From contig JAVKOQ020000096.1 of assembly GCA_031835245.2 (NCBI GenBank), positions 124,001 to 178,517 of the forward strand: DNA of 54,517 bases. The letters are read 5' to 3'. Position 1 is the stretch's first letter; each line of letters starts with the position of its first letter. Below are positions 1,131 through 45,986 of the stretch, piece by piece. The notes under the pieces were generated by a model that was not told the origin of the DNA, ran no database searches, and saw only the letters and a program-made list of their open reading frames with translations. This DNA comes from Balamuthia mandrillaris (lineage: Eukaryota). Position numbers and translations under genes: made by a program.

Positions 1131-1203
1131 GGCCGGTTAGCTTAGTCGGTAGAGCGTGGTGCTAATAACGCCAAGGTCATGGGTTCGATCCCCATACTGG
1201 CCA
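1131..1203 (+). tRNA. tRNA-Ile (anticodon AAT)
   Basis: GGCCGGTTAGCTTAGTCGGTAGAGCGTGGTGCTAATAACGCCAAGGTCATGGGTTCGATCCCCATACTGGCCA is a canonical cloverleaf very close to eukaryotic tRNA-Ile(AAU), followed by a T-run (Pol III terminator) at ~1210-1217. Confidence 0.97.
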
Positions 1204-1611
1204 TTCTTCTTTTTTTTAAAAGTTACATGGCCCAATGCAGAAAGGTGGGGTGCCAGTCTTTTTTCTTTTTTCTTGTTCTTCCTCCTTGCATCTTTCCAAC
1301 AACAGCACACAGCTGGTCAAGAGAAGAACATTCAAGGAGGGTCGGATGATGTAGAGGGGGCAGGCAGCATGATGACTTCGGGAAGAGTACCTCAAAAAGT
1401 TATTTTATAATGTCGACTACGCACGAAACGGAATGTTGCAAACAGATATCGAAAGAGAAACTGCAAACACAAAGGCCTGTTGACCATCCTGATAAGAGAT
1501 TGGTTTATTGGGAAGGACGCATGGCAACAAAAAGGCGCAGAGATTTACGGTTGTTTTAGTCAGAAAGGGAACACTGTGGCCTGAAAGAATCCTTTCCTCA
1601 CGCACAACCGC

Positions 1612-3450
1612 ATGGAAGCGGCCCGGCTGGATCGTTTCAACCGCCTTAACTACAAGTCCTGCCCCTGGCATACGAAACAACCCCGTGTTCTCTTTCAGCA
1701 CATTCGGGCGGCCAACGCAAGGTTCCTCGAATCGAGGGACCTCCACCTCCACGGCTGGGATCAATTCAATGATGATCACTATCTCTGGTGTTGCTCCGTT
1801 GCCATCTTCACTTCCAACTGCATCGAAGACACGGGCCTTTCCCTCAGCGACACTCAACGACTGGTGATGACTAGCTTGCGCGGCGGTGAGCTCGCCGAGG
1901 TGCTTCCCACATCCCAGCGTCTCCGTGATGTCTCCCAGCATGCAGCGGCGTTCAGTTTCCTGTGTCGCGCTAAGCTTGGCCAACCGCTCTCTGTCGAACT
2001 CGTACTCGACACCCATCGCATCCTAATGGCAGGCTCAAAGCGCGAGGATGGTTTCGAGGTGCCAGCGGGTCAATTCAGAGCCGGCGAGGTGATTATAGGG
2101 CGACATAACCAGGCTTGCGTTCCCCCGGCGTTGGCCCAGAAGCTTATCGAGGCGCTGGTCGTGGCCTACAATAAGCACAAAGACGACTTTGATCCATTTG
2201 TGTTGGCGGCATGGTTGAAGCATGTCTTCGTTCACATTCATCCGTTCGACGATGGAAATGGCCGCCTCTCCCGTCTCCTCATGAACTGATCGCTTCTCTC
2301 CTCAGGTCTGCCCTTCCCCGTTTCGCTCCTTCGTGGCGGCTTCAACCACAAGGACAAGAAAAACTACCAGAGTTGTGTGGCGCACGGACCTCCTGTTGGC
2401 TCCATTGCCAAGAGTCTGGAATACTTACTTAAGTCTTTCAGTGCCTTTGTGTTGGAGTCCGTGCACTCGCATTGGTGTTCATTCTGGGAGCGCGCGAGGT
2501 TCGTCTTCCCCTGCCGGCTCGAGATACCTGTTCCGCCGGGGTTTCTTCCTCTCCCTTGGCTAACCTCGGCTGAGCAGGAGGACTTCGAACCAACGATTAT
2601 GCTCAGCGAGGCTCAGAATTATGTGGACAAGCAGAGCTATTCTGGCCAAGCAAAAGAAGAGGTGATCCGCAAGGTCGCTCTGGAGAGGGCACTCGCATGC
2701 GTGACCTACTCCCGACGCGTTCCATCGCCCCATCACCGAGAATCGATTGCCCGGATTCTACGCCCTGTTGTGATTGGCGAACCTGTGAACGACAGCCAGC
2801 TGCTAGCGGAGCTAAGGGGACTGCACGAAGAGCAGCCAGGTGTTCGACGTCCTGAGGAAACACTGGGCATGGCACGGGCCTACCACTATCTGTGCGAGCG
2901 CAGCCGCGCCAAAGAGCTATCTGTAGAACTGATCATAGACACACACAAGCACCTGATGCCCATTAAGGGAGGACTTCTAAGGACAAATGATGCTTATATT
3001 GGAGCACATTTATTCCCTCCGGCGTGTTCGATAGCCGACTCTCTCGAGTCTCTAGTCTTGTCATTCAACCGTCGCCGAGCCGAGACTCGGGCCAGCTCAC
3101 AGGACGGACCTTGCGTGCTCGCAGCCTGGCTCATGTACGAGCTGCTGGCTATTCATCCCTTTGAGGATGGCAACGGCAGGCTCTCTCGCCTACTATTGAA
3201 CTGGGTGTTGCTCTCCTTCGGAATGCCCTTTCCCGTCACGTTTGACAGCGAGCCAGGAGCCCTTAAGAGTGCGCACAAGAAGCTCATGGCAGCCATCGTT
3301 GCCGGCAGGCTCTTTGCTGGGTGTCCTTCGGTGCTCGCCACGCGCGTGCTTCTCTCGGTTCGGAACACCTGGCAGCGGATATACAGCGAACTCGACATGG
3401 TGGAGGAGCAAAGTGGTAATCAGGAGCGTATTACTTCTGTGAGCAATTGA
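1612..3450 (+). pseudogene. Tandem double-Fic-domain (AMPylase-type) gene with one in-frame TGA at 2287-2289
   Basis: ORFs 1612-2289 and 2377-3450 are in the same frame, and the sequence between them is open (SLLSSGLPFPVSLLRGG...). Two canonical Fic motifs: HPFDDGNGRLSR and HPFEDGNGRLSR. Intronless. Confidence 0.8.
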
Positions 3451-20764: not shown

Positions 20765-22218
20765 ATGGAGGAGAAAGCTCCTTTAGAGGTTGTGGAGAAG
20801 AAGGGAGAGGAGGATGAAAGTCAACTCCTTCCCGCCCTTCTCCAACCTTTTGCGCACTCGACCGTCTGCAACCTCTCCAACAAGGGTTTGACCTCTTTGC
20901 CGAGCGCGGTTGAACGGCTGAGCACCAACCCTCAGTGTATTAGACCTCCAATAACAACCAACTTACCTCCTTGCCAAGAGAGTTTGGCAAGCTGACCTCC
21001 CTCACCTGGTGCTTCCTCCGCAACAACAACTTGACGGCTTTGCCCCCTGAGTTTGGCCAGCTCAGTGCCCTGACCCGTTGCAGCCTCTCCAACAACAGGC
21101 TTTCATCATTACCAAGAGACTTTGGCCAGCTCCGTGCTCTCTCCGATTGTAACCTCTCCAACAACAACTTGACGGCTTTGCCCGCTGAGTTTGGCCAGCT
21201 TGGCTCTCTCTCCGACTACGCCTGCCATCATAATCATCTGCAAGCTTTGCCTCCTGAGTTTGGCCAGCTCAGCTCTCTGACCCGCTGCAACCTCTCCCAC
21301 AACAAGCTTTCGTCCTTACCCAGAGAGTTTGGCCAGCTGCATGCTCTCTACGATTGTGACCTCCGAGGAAACGAGCTTTCATCCGTTCCCAGAGAGTTCG
21401 GCCACCTCCGCGCTTTGACCCGCTGCAACCTCTCCTGCAACAAGCTGACCTCCTTGCCAAGAGAGTTTGGCCAGCTCATCGCTCTCTCCGACTGCGATCT
21501 CTGTGGAAACGAGCTTTCATCCGTTCCCAGAGAGTTTGGCCACCTCCGCGCTCTGACCCGCTGCAACCTCTCCTGCAACAAGCTTTCGTTCTTACCCAGA
21601 GAGTTTGGCCAGCTCATCGCCCTCACCTACTGCGACTTGTATGAAAACCCATTGGCAGCACTGCCTTGCACTGTGGCTCAGCTTCTTCCAAGAATGCGAA
21701 TGCATTCCACTCAACCCTTTCATCGGCAGGAAGCGCTTCTCAGCCAAACAGAAGAGAATGATGAAGAGGCGAAGAAGAACCACACTACCGTGAACAGTTT
21801 GAGGCACTTGAGCGGAGAGGCGGTGCTAATGAACAACCTTTTGCCAACAGGCCTGTTGAGGCCTGTTCCAGACTCGCCCTTCGCATGGCTTTCTTCTCCA
21901 CGGAAGGAGAGAACCACAAAACTTCAGAATGGAACAACAACAGAAAGGAAGGAAGGAGGAGAAGGAAGTGTGGAGATTGCCAAAGTCGTGTTGCCAGAAG
22001 AAGTGAAGGAAAGACTGGAAAGGTTACAGAGAAGGTGCGACGTTTGTGAACAGCTGTTTTTGGAGGCAGAGGCGGAGGAGGAGGAAGAAGAAAGCCAGCC
22101 AAGGCAAATTGTGCGAAGGTTTTGGGACCAGGAACGAGGAGTTTGGTGGGAGCTGTTGTGTTGCTGCCAGAGCTGCCGCACCCAGCCGCTGGCTGGCTAT
22201 TCTCTTGCAACGAAGTAG
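20765..22218 (+). CDS. Leucine-rich repeat protein (23-aa repeats) with BC-box-like and C-terminal Cys-rich motifs; apparent frameshift near 20930-20950
   Basis: About 11 repeats of LxxLxxCxLxxNxLxxLPxEFGx; SLRHLSGEAVL; CDVC...CCCQSC. The N-terminal frame (ATG 20765) joins the 20971 frame only after removing two single bases. Confidence 0.8.
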
Positions 22219-22268
22219 AAGTAGTTCCTTTGCTTTTTCTTTTTTTTTGTGTGTTATTATTAAAAACA

Positions 22269-22276
22269 TCCCACAA
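22269..22276 (+). promoter_or_regulatory. DUSE-like upstream element (TCCCACAA)
   Basis: Matches the Dictyostelium snRNA/Class I RNA upstream element (WCCCAHAA type), ~61 nt before the predicted RNA 5' end at 22338. Mirrored in the paralog. Confidence 0.65.
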
Positions 22277-22337
22277 TGGGACGGTTGCTGTCCGTAGGTT
22301 TCGCTCAAATGGCTGCCGGGAGGCAAGAGGAAACCTC

Positions 22338-22491
22338 GGGAAAGTGAACGGTTTGAGTGCTGCTCACCCTGTGATGTCGCTACTTCGAAAAATAGTCTAT
22401 TTGGAAAGATTCTTGATTGTCACTCAAGCGGATGGGGTTCGATTCCCCATTTTTCACCCCAGCGACGCACGCTGCCACTCCTTCACCTTCC
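22338..22491 (+). ncRNA. Long-hairpin RNA with apical tRNA cloverleaf (22386-22457), anticodon GTC (Asp-like)
   Basis: CGAAAAA-TA-GTCT-ATTTGGAA-AGAT-T-CTTGA-TTGTCAC-TCAAG-CGGA-TGGGG-TTCGATT-CCCCA-TTTTTCA. Flanks pair: GTGATGTCGCT/AGCGACGCAC, GAGTG/CACTC, GGAAAGTGAA/TTCACCTTCC. T-rich tail follows. Confidence 0.75.
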
Positions 22492-22551
22492 TTCCTTTCT
22501 TTTTTCTTGTTTTTCTTCTGTTCTTTTTTTTTTTGGAAAAAAAACTCTACG

Positions 22552-22583
<32 letters not shown>

Positions 22584-22769
22584 ATGTTAAATGCTGGGTC
22601 AACTCGCTGCTGAGTAGCAGGTAAAGTTGATTTCCATGGGATTTCTGCAAGACCAATACTGCATTTTGTTGTGAAAAAGAGTCCTGTGGGGGTTTGCCAA
22701 AGGGGGTGTAGCGACTTGCGCTGTTTGCTCATTCTTCTTCTTCCTTTGCTTTCTGCGAAAGAAATAATA

Positions 22770-22777
22770 ACCCATAA
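22770..22777 (+). promoter_or_regulatory. DUSE-like upstream element (ACCCATAA)
   Basis: Same motif ~59 nt before the predicted 5' end at 22837, in otherwise largely diverged upstream sequence. Confidence 0.65.
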
Positions 22778-22836
22778 TTATTCCGTAGCGCATTCTTCCT
22801 TGCGTTGAAGATGGTTGTGCAATGAAAGGAAACCTC

Positions 22837-22999
22837 GGGAAAGTGAACGGCTTGAGTGCTGCTAACACACACAATACGGTGATGTCGCTACTTCGAAAAA
22901 TAGTCTATTGGAAAGATTCTTGATTTGGGTTCAAGCGCACGGGGTTCGATTCCCCGTTTTTCGCCCCGGCGACGCACGCTGCCACTCCTTCACTTTTCC
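22837..22999 (+). ncRNA. Long-hairpin RNA with apical tRNA cloverleaf (22894-22964), anticodon TGG (Pro-like)
   Basis: CGAAAAA-TA-GTCT-ATTGGAA-AGAT-T-CTTGA-TTTGGGT-TCAAG-CGCA-CGGGG-TTCGATT-CCCCG-TTTTTCG. Outer stems as in copy 1 (GGGAAAGTGAA/TTCACTTTTCC). T-run follows. Confidence 0.75.
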
Positions 23000-23159
23000 T
23001 TTTCATTTTTGTTCTTATTTTCCGATAATCAGAAACCATGACGATAATAATTGTTAGCTATCACGCGAAACCATGCGTGCTCGACGATAATAATCAAATA
23101 TTCGTATCGATAATAATTGCTGCCGTTTTTGTAACAGCAGAAAAGACGAACGAAAAAGG

Positions 23160-23355
23160 ATGAGACGCGGTTTGGCCCTTGGCACTAACCCTTGGCTTGG
23201 TCGTGTGGGTGGCACCTTCAGCCCATTTGCCGTCGTTCCAGGAAGCTACGGCGGCGGCATCAGAACCTACTGTGCCGTCAGCTCCTTCAACAAGATCTAT
23301 TCCTCTGCTCAAGATGCCGTTAAAGACATTCCTTCTGGCTCTACTTTGTACTACT

Positions 23356-23447
<92 letters not shown>

Positions 23448-24664
23448 CGACACCTTATCTTAAAGAAACACACAAATAAAGGTTAGTGGGAGGCTTTGGG
23501 CTGTGTGGCATTCCAGAGAATCTCATCACCGCTTTGAGGGACACTGGAGTGAAGGACTTGACTGCAGTGAGCAACAACTGCGGCGTGGATGACTTTGGAT
23601 TAGGACTCCTCCTTCAGACCAAGCAGTTGAAGCGGATGGTCTCTTCCTACGTGGGAGAGAACGCCACCTTTGAGAAGCAGTACCTCAGCGGCGAACTTGA
23701 GCTCGAACTCACTCCACAGGTTTCTTTCCTCTTTTTTTTCTTCTGTGTTCGTCCTCGTAGTTTCATTCTTTCTTGTTGTTCCTTTGCTGTCTATTTCTTT
23801 TCTCGTCGCTTTTTTCTCGTCGTTGCTCTGTTTCTTGTTGCTCTTGTGTGCACGTTTTTGTAAACGCTGGTTTAATAATAGGGAAGCTTGGCCGAAAGGG
23901 TGAGGGCTGGAGGGGCTGGCATTCCTGCTTTCTACACCCCAACTGGCGTTGGTACCTTTCTGGAGGTAATGCTCTCGCTTCTTTCTTCTTTACTATGTAC
24001 TTTGCTTACAAAAAAAAAAAAAACACCAATAATAGGAAGGAGGTTTTGTCATCAAGTACAATAGCGATGGATCTCCTGCCATTCTGAGCAAGCCTCGTGA
24101 GGTTCTCCTCCTCGTCTCGTTATCTTTCTTCATGCTCGTTCATCTCCATTTGCATGCGTTTACTGATTTCCGTTTAAATTTTCAATGTTTATTCATTCAG
24201 ATACGTGAGTTCAACGGACGCAAATACTTGCTGGAAGAGGCTATTCGCGGGGACTTTGCTCTAGTCAAAGCCTGGAAGGCGGACACTAAGGGCAACCTCA
24301 TGTTCAGACGCACCGCGCGTAACTTCAACCCAGCCATGGCCACCGCTGCCAAGGTGTGCATAGCGGAGGTGGAGGAGATTGTAGAGGCTGGTGCCTTGGA
24401 TCCGGATGAGATCCATTTGCCTGGTATCTACGTTCAACGTCTCATTCGAGGTCCATCTTACCAAAAGCGAATTGAGGTTTTGTTCTCTTTATTCTCTCTT
24501 TTTTTAACGTTACTAATTCAAACAATAATAACACAATAGAGACTTACTTTGGACAAAGGAGAGTCAGAGAAGGCTATCGATCCGAAGCGGGAACGCATTG
24601 TCAAGCGTGCTGCTCTTGAGTTTGAGGTATGTACTACGTACTCTCGTTCTGTACGTTGCTCGAC

Positions 24665-24705
<41 letters not shown>

Positions 24706-25400
24706 GAAAAACACAGGATGGAATGTACTGCAACTTGGGTATTGGCATTCCCACTCTCTCCAGCAACTACATTCCAAAGGGCATCAGCATTGAGCTTCAA
24801 AGCGAAAACGGACTGTTGGGCATGGTAATGCTCTCTCTCGCTCTCTCTCTCATTTCTTCTGACGTCCAATACTTTTTTGTGATTGCCACCTTTAAAAAAA
24901 GGGACCATACCCAAAGACTGGTAAACAAGACCCTGACCTCATTAACGCTGGAAAGGAAACCGTCACGACATTGCCTGGCTCAGCTACTTTCTCCAGCGAT
25001 GCTTCCTTTGCTATGATCCGAGGGTATGGGCTCCTTCTTTTTCTTTCTTTTCCCTTTGTTTTGCTTTCCTCTGTCGTTTCTTTCCTTTTGTCTGTCGTAA
25101 GGAACACATGTACAACGAATTGTGAGTTGATAAAAGACGGACAAATAGAAATACACAACATGTTTTTCAAGTGAGACATATCCAAGTGTCTCATTTGACA
25201 AAGACTGTTGTGACACCTTTACTTCTGTGTTTCTCTCCTTGGCTTTTACATCTCTCATTTTTGAATGTTTTCTTGGACTAAATATTTATCCACTTGCTCT
25301 TTTTTCTTATTTCATAGTGCTCATATGAATTTGACAATGTTAGGCGCGTTGCAAGTCTCAAAGAATGGCGATCTTGCCAACTGGATTATTCCCGTACGTG

Positions 25401-44443: not shown

Positions 44444-45850
44444 TCAAGGAAAAGAGATGGAAGTAATAGAGTGGTAGTAGCCAGAGGCGTCAAACTTTCC
44501 CCGTTGGGAGAGATGAATGCCGCTCAGTTTGATCTCGCCAAAGCTTCGTGAGGAGTGACGGCTGAGCAGCTGGGTGGCATCGATTGGGATCCGTTCCTCC
44601 TGGTCTCTGCTTCCTCCTCTTCCTGCTCCGCCTCTTCCTCCTCTTTGTTGTTGTCTACTTGAGGTGGACTCTTCCTCTCCTCCGTCTTCGGCTTGTGTTC
44701 TTAGCCGCGTGTTGATAAGCGTGGCATGCAGCTGTGCATGTTATGCTGTGTCAGTGTCTCTTTATGTATTAGCCTGTGTTCTTGTTGAAAAGACGAACCT
44801 TTACGGGACGCATCTCAGCCTCTGATATGAGGCCAGCCTTTGAAAACTCTTTCTGCAGATATTCTATAGATATTATGTTTGTTAAAGTTTGTTGGTTAAC
44901 CCGCAAGAGAGAGAGAGAGAGACGTAACTACAAACGGCAGGCAATCGCGGTGGCTCCTGCAACTCCTTCACACCCATGTACACCACATCCACCCTGCTGG
45001 GGTCATCGTTCATCATCTCCAGGCCCGTCAGCGCCACCCTCAGGGAGGTCGTGCCCACCACGTCGTAAACCGCCGCGGCGCAGCCCCTCAGCAGCTCCTT
45101 GGCCCTCTCCACCTCCCTCTCGCTGTAGAGCTTCAGCATGAGGAGGGTCAAATGCAGCTTGGCGGGGTCCACCAGGATGGACTCCTCCAGGCCACGCCGC
45201 TGGCCCTGCTGCTCCTCCTGCAGCAGCTGCCGACAAAACTGGCGCACGCCCTGGAGGAGCTCCGCGTCCGTCGTCAAAGGGATGGACAGGAAGTGGGTGT
45301 AGGGGAGCCTCTCCAGGGCCTGCTGGCAGAGGATCTCGATGCGGCTGCGGGCCGAGCGCACGGCCTGCCGGGAGGGACCGCGGATGACCACCTGCTGTTG
45401 GTGCGGGGCTGCGCCCTGGCGAGGGATGAGGAGGGTGGTGCCGGTGTCGCTCTGCAGCTTGCTGCGCATCTGGCCGCCCTTGCCGATGAGGAACGGGTAG
45501 AAGGCGGGCGCCAAGGGCAGGCGCAGCACGCAGAGCCCAGAGTCAGGTTCCTGTTCGATGGGGAGCGCGTCCTCCTCCCCTTCTGCCGTGTCGACCATCA
45601 TCTTTTCTTCTTCGATGAGGTTGGCAGAGGGGGGCAGAGCGCTGCAAACGGGTTCATCTTGTTCAAAGCGTGGTTCCTCTTCGGCTTGCTTTCTGTTTGC
45701 TGTTGCTGTTGTTGTTGTTGTGGAGGTTGATGGTGCAGAGACCCTACGACGACGCGTCGAGCTGAGCGGACGGTCTACCTTGGCTTTACGAAAGGTCCTG
45801 CCGTGCACCGTGACCAGGGTGATCCCTTCCTCCTGGCTGTAATCCTCCAT
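44444..45850 (-). CDS. ASCC1: Activating signal cointegrator 1 complex subunit 1 (KH + 2H phosphoesterase), multi-exon
   Basis: KH motif FLIGKGG; YTHFLSIPL; KLHLTL and QLHATLINT HxT motifs; MNDDPSRVDVVY; SGYY C-terminus. Confidence 0.92.
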
Positions 45851-45986
45851 TTCTTCGCCTTTATCTTTTCTTCTTTTGTTAGCTTTATCTTTTCATGACG
45901 ACACGAAACATTCACGTCGTCACGAACAAACCATCATGTCGTCATGAAAATATCCATTAAAAAAACAAAGTTGCATTTAAAAAGAG

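Follow-up and report, generated by a model that had tools for sequence, protein, structure and literature searches.

Two Paralogous RNA Genes at One Locus

The stretch of Balamuthia mandrillaris DNA analyzed here (the window, 54,517 nucleotides) contains two paralogous RNA genes, at 22328 to ~22496 and at 22827 to ~23003, offset by 499 bp. Two direct repeats about 500 bp apart had been proposed from the sequence and are found in these places, although their true starts lie 10 nt earlier than proposed, at 22328 and 22827, and these 10 nt are identical between the copies (10/10). From there the copies can be aligned to ~22492 and ~22999, respectively. The genes, their parts and their neighbors are as follows.

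20944..22218, plus strand: upstream neighbor, an ORF with leucine-rich repeats that belongs to a multi-copy family and is joined to copy 1 by no read
22269..22276, plus strand: DUSE-like element of copy 1, differing from the published motif by one mismatch and placed 59 nt ahead of the conserved start
22328..22496, plus strand: RNA gene of copy 1, with an Asp anticodon; the reads put its 5′ end near 22328, and its 3′ end is approximate
22338..22385, plus strand: copy 1 leader, which makes up the outer stem's 5′ strand and includes a variable bulge at 22364–22371
22386..22457, plus strand: copy 1 cloverleaf, with a C1-A72 mismatch, C73, A9 at 22394, A58 at 22442 and an internal T5 at 22450–22454
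22417..22423, plus strand: copy 1 anticodon loop, with anticodon GUC (22419–22421), A37 and C38
22458..22492, plus strand: copy 1 trailer, the 3′ strand of the outer stem, followed by T6 at 22500–22505
22770..22777, plus strand: DUSE-like element of copy 2, identical to the published motif and placed 57 nt ahead of the conserved start
22827..23003, plus strand: RNA gene of copy 2, with a Pro anticodon and weak expression in the runs used; ends approximate
22837..22893, plus strand: copy 2 leader, with a bulge 9 nt longer
22894..22964, plus strand: copy 2 cloverleaf, with C1-G72, C73, A58 at 22949 and an internal T5 at 22957–22961
22924..22930, plus strand: copy 2 anticodon loop, with anticodon UGG (22926–22928), G37 and U38
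22965..23000, plus strand: copy 2 trailer, with downstream runs of only T4, T4 and T5
23160..25013, plus strand: downstream neighbor, an intron-containing CoA-transferase gene of approximate extent; no reads join it to copy 2

Identity between the copies is 25/26 in the outer 5′ strand of the leader, 5/17 in the bulge and 14/14 in the inner leader, followed by 62/72 in the tRNA core and 31/35 in the trailer, and it amounts to 32/78 upstream and 9/21 downstream of the element. The borders of conservation are sharp (~95% within the stems vs. 41% upstream), and the differences that exist are mostly found in loops. Leader and trailer are conserved as well as the tRNA core, or better, which agrees with the conserved flanks of the original prediction. 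The predicted indel in the bulge is present as well, but there is a further 1-nt indel in the D-loop, and the largest point difference between the copies, the replacement of all five anticodon-loop bases at positions 34–38 (0/5 identical), had gone unmentioned.

The C-terminal part of the upstream leucine-rich-repeat ORF attracts many divergent paralog reads and contigs, pointing to a large family. Elsewhere, the window contains introns and microsatellites, an ASCC1-like ORF (44885–45892) that is 95% identical to a B. mandrillaris protein, with the next best match at 36–46%, and two successive in-frame Fic/DOC-domain ORFs with one stop codon between them (1585–3450, plus strand).

A tRNA Cloverleaf on a Predicted Long Outer Stem

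A tRNA is found in each copy by both ARAGORN and Rfam, at 22386–22457 and 22894–22964. The Rfam tRNA model (RF00005, cut-off 29) gives 51.7 bits for copy 1 (E 5e-9) and 50.9 bits for copy 2 (E 9e-9). Rfam matches the tRNA core only, and none of its families spans the whole RNA; a scan of the whole window gave a single further match, an ordinary tRNA-Ile. U8, A14, the GG of the D-loop, the T-loop, the U15/A48 pair and the A-rich acceptor described beforehand are all present in the cloverleaves. When 49 drawn pairs are scored in both copies, 96 of the 98 cells are standard, and the sole exceptions are the two A-C mismatches already ascribed to copy 1, at C1-A72 and 22343/22487.

The covariation between the copies had been overstated. 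Only one pair, 49-65 of the T-stem, is changed on both sides and three are changed on one side, and in the outer stem no pair differs on both sides between the two copies. In a shuffle control for covariation, which rests on only two sequences, 249/500 shuffles were as good. Within the predicted outer stem, pair probabilities are 0.74–1.0 in the terminal helix and in the helix of six pairs adjoining the acceptor, while the middle helix in the GAGTG/CACTC region is poorly determined (0.2–0.66). As in RNAs of the Y type, the two ends are paired within a bulged stem in the predicted fold, with the terminal helix at 0.74–1.0.

Imposing the cloverleaf costs 1.1–1.5 kcal/mol above the minimum-energy fold. 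The z-scores for folding of the whole RNA are weak, −1.49 for copy 1 (19/200 shuffles as good) and −1.12 for copy 2 (24/200). Pairing of leader with trailer was equaled by 7/1000 dinucleotide shuffles for copy 1 and 65/1000 for copy 2, for which the leader was shortened; with mononucleotide shuffles the numbers were 43/500 and 4/500. Among window positions arranged in the same geometry, 107/5436 reach −30 kcal/mol. The outer stem is thus supported by the pattern of conservation and by moderate thermodynamics, and not by covariation. A possible pseudoknot between the anticodon loop of copy 1 and its leader (6 nt) was taken as chance because the pairing is absent in copy 2.

Exchange of the Anticodon Loop

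The anticodon loops are exchanged as a block, so that copy 1 carries Asp-GUC together with A37 and C38, and copy 2 carries Pro-UGG together with G37 and U38. The Asp determinants are given as G34, U35, C36 and C38 in bacteria and G73 and G10-U25 in eukaryotes, and the Pro determinants as G35, G36, G37, G72 and A73 in bacteria and C73, G35 and G36 in eukaryotes (PMC9976931). Copy 1 contains the Asp loop determinants G34, U35, C36 and C38 as well as G10-U25, but lacks G73 and has the C1-A72 mismatch. Copy 2 contains all the Pro determinants given for eukaryotes (C73, G35, G36), plus G72 and G37 of the bacterial type. Both loops suit their own anticodon at positions 37 and 38, for which a rough, post hoc estimate gives a chance of ~1–2%, and the anticodon loop of copy 2 is identical in the DNA runs X9 and X12.

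By blastn, copy 1 is matched best by a phage tRNA-Asp, of which the 3′ half aligns at 81% over 47 nt (E 0.01). The shared tRNA body is likely derived from a tRNA-Asp, for which this match is weak evidence. We also note that the record of Bacillus phage BC-T25 contains a tRNA cluster without annotation (L002:206-624), made up of Gly, Asp and Glu genes and a damaged one.

A Discrete and Apparently Modified Transcript

Six of 21 listed public runs were used, three of DNA (X1, X9, X12) and three of RNA (X17, X18, X19). All three RNA runs are from one study, 3–5% of each was read, and mates were counted separately. The RNA isolate differs from the isolate of the window, and differences at partial frequency occur also in the neighboring exon.

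In two RNA runs the depth is zero at 22210–22309 and 30–75x over 22370–22469 of copy 1, and around copy 2 it is zero at 22600–22781 and at 23016–23145, with 8–14x in the CoA-transferase exon. Copy 1 is clearly expressed as an RNA that includes the flanks, in a discrete island of reads with a misread of tRNA type at A58. The outermost 5′ read on copy 1 ends at 22328–22329, which agrees both with the onset of conservation and with the start predicted from a DUSE spacing of ~60 nt. The 3′ end of copy 1 is approximate, since the alignment passed over everything from 22483 onward as repeat. At the anticodon of the copy 2 stretch, reads of the copy 1 type make up 42/45 in X17, 48/53 in X18 and 2/4 in X19, a run that yielded 6 reads only. 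One X18 read begins ~38 nt upstream of where copy 2 is predicted to start, and we count it against the start assumed below for a tRNA mimic. Depth is zero between the element and both neighbors, and this small stand-alone island led us to reject an origin of the mascRNA/menRNA type; as no reads connect the two, an element in the 3′-UTR of the leucine-rich-repeat gene was rejected as well.

A58 is read as T in 34/75 (X17) and 48/69 (X18) reads on the copy 1 alignment, and in 28/69 (X17) and 42/63 (X18) on the copy 2 alignment. A9 is read as T in 5/38 and 10/55 reads. DNA contigs of X1, X9 and X12 have only A at position 58. In tRNA sequencing, m1A58 is described as showing up in such misreads, and so is m1A9 in Asp-GTC (10.1101/2024.01.30.575011; PMC7293042). 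The A58 misread is therefore likely to be m1A58, with an allele at this position in the RNA isolate as the formal alternative. First mates fall on both strands at about 1:1, so the library gives no strand, and the plus strand as well as a tRNA-like fold in vivo are instead argued from the A58 and A9 misreads.

The reads also bear on whether the RNA is trimmed. At 4 nt past the discriminator there are 67 reads vs. 69 at A58 in X17, and 63 vs. 63 in X18, and adapter-joined read ends are found at 22984–22993, deep within the trailer. Immediately 5′ of the cloverleaf the mean depth is 32 (X17) and 51 (X18), and among the positions listed in the RNA runs there is no common read start or end. In X18, ~76 reads lie on the element, ~50 of them with leader, and 48 are misread, from which we estimate that ~20 carry both. 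By this estimate, which combines two alignments, a modified and untrimmed form of the RNA exists and is abundant. The libraries are random-primed with 150-nt reads and would lose a 72-nt mature product, which we count against the reading as a tRNA mimic. Of the two roles originally suggested, a tRNA mimic or a precursor cut by RNase P and RNase Z, the reads thus favor the intact form, in libraries blind to the 72-nt product. As m1A58 is described as probably an early step of tRNA maturation (PMC10275265), the misread does not distinguish a mimic from a precursor.

Candidate Promoters and Termination

Both copies contain A and B boxes that fit the general consensus. Internal A and B boxes would place the start of transcription close to the cloverleaf, and not 58 nt ahead of it. 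DUSE, the motif [AT]CCCA[AT]AA, is located ~63 bp upstream of many ncRNA genes in dictyostelids (PMC3188802), where it is described as serving genes of Pol II as well as of Pol III and as not expected outside Dictyostelia (PMC7919456). The DUSE-like elements of copies 1 and 2 are candidate promoters, judged by a motif taken from dictyostelids, and their spacing of 59 and 57 nt is close to that published. A loosened form of the motif occurs 10 times on the plus strand of the window, equal to ~0.002 per copy for a stretch of 10 nt, an estimate in which the two copies are not independent and the motif was loosened post hoc. The element of copy 1 lies within a 7-pair inverted repeat (22267–22283) that is absent from copy 2 and is probably due to chance.

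RNA reads continue across the T5 within the acceptor, and downstream of copy 2 there is no T run longer than T5. The ordinary tRNA-Ile(AAT) of the window (1131–1203, plus strand) offers a contrast, ending in T8 and having no DUSE-like motif upstream.

Copy Number and Conservation

In X1, six contig pieces are accounted for by the two copies, with the shared piece at a depth of 210 vs. 84–132. No third copy was found within the window or, at a similarity of at least 80%, in the DNA contigs. With only two copies there and no sign of dispersed, tailed copies, we rejected a tRNA-derived SINE, as the original prediction had done, for copies at least 80% alike. Both copies appear in X9, whereas X12 has copy 2 together with the left portion of copy 1. 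Among the positions listed, X12 shows seven differences upstream (22219–22321) and, inside the element, copy 2 letters only.

Homologs were sought in viral, metagenome, prokaryotic, phage and plasmid collections, which contain no eukaryotic genomes, so that absence from other amoebae is not implied. Two core patterns, searched as exact matches, gave 0 matches in viral contigs, and a pattern of the stem geometry gave 5, of which 0 contain a tRNA gene by ARAGORN. Metagenome contigs gave 1 match, an ordinary tRNA-Gly without the flanks, GTDB genomes gave 0 matches to the exact-match patterns, and blastn against phages and plasmids found no record covering 80%. The family had not been recognized beforehand, and neither a catalogued Rfam family spanning it nor a description in the literature was found, a review of tRNA-like structures included (PMC10424219); the accessible text of the genome papers gives tRNA and ncRNA counts only, and the supplements of a bioRxiv preprint could list the two loci (PMC10471605; 10.1101/2025.02.25.640156).

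Two chance pattern matches may be mentioned in their own right. One, in a phage record (L008:74-182, minus strand), is a YrlA-like permuted tRNA (RF02553, 39.5 bits, E 1.4e-6, cut-off 69) at most ~1 kb from a TROVE ORF of 575 aa, and resembles an ordinary phage Ro60/Y RNA locus. The other, in virus record L005, lies at a TROVE-domain gene.

Discussion

Our results support the conclusion that the two genes encode an ncRNA that is under selection, is transcribed and belongs to no catalogued family. It is probably not an ordinary tRNA but a tRNA mimic with blocked ends that has gone undescribed. For the full proposal, that both genes encode a transcribed RNA of ~170 nt with a cloverleaf on a predicted long stem, serving as a stable, uncharged and end-blocked tRNA mimic, we consider the chances to be about even. 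Transcription would then start from an external promoter of the DUSE type ~58 nt ahead of the cloverleaf, and the head would fold as tRNA and receive m1A58 and probably m1A9. Pairing of leader with trailer would bury both ends of the tRNA in an internal loop, where RNase P and RNase Z may be slow or inactive, and the RNA would acquire neither a CCA end nor an amino acid. By analogy with Y RNAs of the Yrn1 type and with vault RNAs, the conserved stem could be a handle for a putative protein, and the head would present the anticodon loop of Asp or of Pro to a putative reader of isoacceptor identity. The most likely readers would be the cognate synthetases or the ribosome, with the RNA as a hypothetical decoy or tether. 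The missing Asp discriminator G73 and the C1-A72 mismatch of copy 1 speak for a mimic. The proposal is weakened by the weak folding z-scores, by an outer stem without any two-sided change, by the full eukaryotic Pro set of copy 2, by the A and B boxes in both copies, and by the documentation of DUSE, in the source consulted, for dictyostelids only (PMC7919456).

Alternatively, the RNAs could be slow, stored precursors of two specialized real tRNAs, for Asp and Pro, that share one body, from which RNase P and RNase Z free a 72-nt tRNA, perhaps conditionally or after import into mitochondria, with the stem setting the rate or route. We regard this as unlikely, though a serious contender. The four arms are all retained, as are the A and B boxes and anticodon loops of natural type, copy 2 has C73, G35 and G36 together with G72 and G37, copy 1 has G10-U25 and C38, and a short product would have escaped the libraries. 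Mitochondria of Acanthamoeba carry out editing at the first three positions of the acceptor (PMC12566451), those of B. mandrillaris are reported to encode only 13–18 tRNAs, and both facts suit such a precursor, as mitochondrial 5′ editing of acceptor mismatches could mend C1-A72. On the other hand, nearly all reads pass both tRNA ends with no shared end among those listed, and it is the expressed copy 1 that lacks G73. A leader of 58–67 nt from a candidate promoter of external type, and flanks as conserved as the tRNA, are also difficult to reconcile with a precursor.

Quite improbable, in our view, is a Y RNA or vault RNA of Amoebozoa, of which Ro60 or TEP1 (TROVE-domain) would bind the bulged terminal stem while the tRNA head serves as effector or nuclease shield. 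It is usual for Y and vault RNAs to occur as several paralogs that differ in their middle part. Paired ends, bulges and a U-rich tail are shared with them, A and B boxes occur inside vault RNAs, vaults exist in Amoebozoa, and in Yrn1 the T, D-like and anticodon arms sit on the helix that binds Ro (PMC4201824). However, the best matches to GNCGAAN0-1G and GGUCCGA in the 5′ strand have 2 mismatches, and there is no match to an Rfam Y, YrlA or vault family at E up to 10 with the same library that did catch the YrlA-like RNA of a phage. The length of ~170 nt compares with 80–140 nt for vault RNAs, and natural anticodon loops would not be needed. A duplicated, decaying tRNA pseudogene or a rare tRNA-derived repeat, transcribed without function and with flanks that pair by chance, would fit the weak z-scores, the lack of covariation in the outer stem and the absence of a homolog from the non-eukaryotic collections. 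It is very improbable given the sharp borders of conservation, the concentration of differences in loops and the retention of both copies in other isolates, and given that the element is a discrete and abundant RNA with two copies only.

Going one step further than the end-blocked mimic, the RNAs might be caged tRNAs, a new eukaryotic class in which one body is varied only in the anticodon loop, expressed from a promoter of the snRNA type, modified in the manner of a tRNA and locked at the acceptor by the conserved stem; this is possible, but we propose it tentatively and lean against it. If true, caged tRNAs would be codon-specific, permanently uncharged Asp and Pro decoys, or tRNAs released on demand, and would act on synthetases, ribosomes or starvation sensors.

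If borne out, a stand-alone eukaryotic RNA with a full and apparently modified cloverleaf, and with paralogs swapped in the anticodon loop, would be a new design. It could provide a handle on the function of tRNA heads and on the form that Y or vault RNAs take in Amoebozoa, and a DUSE-type promoter, if functional here, would reach beyond dictyostelids. We point out that tRNA scanners would file such genes as ordinary tRNA-Asp and tRNA-Pro, and similar RNAs may thus hide in the annotations of protists.

Relation to Known RNAs

Several known RNAs share single features with the Balamuthia RNA. The trypanosome tRNA-like RNAs of the SRP, sRNA-85 and sRNA-76, are tRNA mimics of a protist with a role outside translation, but they are tRNA-sized and lack a long closing stem. 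Going by their usual motifs, a telomerase template, C/D boxes and a U1 5′ end are absent from the copies, and the only Sm-like match lies in the anticodon loop of copy 2, so that these classes were rejected; no snRNA or snoRNA family of Rfam matched either copy.

Ordinary tRNA-Asp(GUC) and tRNA-Pro(UGG) (RF00005) resemble the heads in a core above the cut-off, a 4-nt variable loop, G10-U25 and A9. Here, by contrast, one body serves two anticodons, C73 is found in both copies, the acceptor is A6/U5, the flanks are conserved and predicted to pair, the candidate promoter is of external type and the reads are not trimmed to the tRNA. The DUSE RNAs of dictyostelids (snRNAs, Class I/II) likewise have the upstream motif ~60 nt before the start and ends that pair (PMC3188802, PMC7919456), but Class I/II RNAs are described as 50–60 nt long with a short stem, a conserved bulge motif and no tRNA (PMC3188802). 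Vault RNAs, including TBsRNA-10 of T. brucei, share internal A and B boxes and bulged paired ends, and differ in their 80–140 nt and in that no full cloverleaf is reported in these accounts (PMC7916137, PMC12547018). In mascRNA/menRNA and Arabidopsis GUT15 a tRNA-like element is also part of a longer transcript, but there it is excised from long Pol II RNAs (PMC10424219).

Closest are the tRNA-like Y RNAs of bacteria. YrlA (RF02553) is also a tRNA mimic on a long stem that is modified by tRNA enzymes, but it is circularly permuted, with the T arm ahead of the D arm and a loop-closed acceptor; the contrast originally drawn with YrlA is thus justified, and no Rfam YrlA match was found at E up to 10. 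A tRNA-like module is described as not apparent in metazoan Y RNAs (PMC4201824). Nearest in design is Yrn1 of D. radiodurans, in which a tRNA-like head with a T arm and a stem-loop at the anticodon position is placed on a helix formed by the ends, and which is uncut by RNase P and carries a tRNA modification (PMC4201824). Yrn1 differs in its incomplete D arm, 6-nt anticodon loop, Ro-binding motif and bacterial host (PMC4201824), whereas the Balamuthia RNA has a complete cloverleaf and natural loops of 7 nt, is without the Ro motif and comes from a eukaryote. With its middle stem-loop in the place of the anticodon arm, Yrn1 gives the topology of the Balamuthia RNA a bacterial precedent, provided that its end helix is, as we infer, on the acceptor side.
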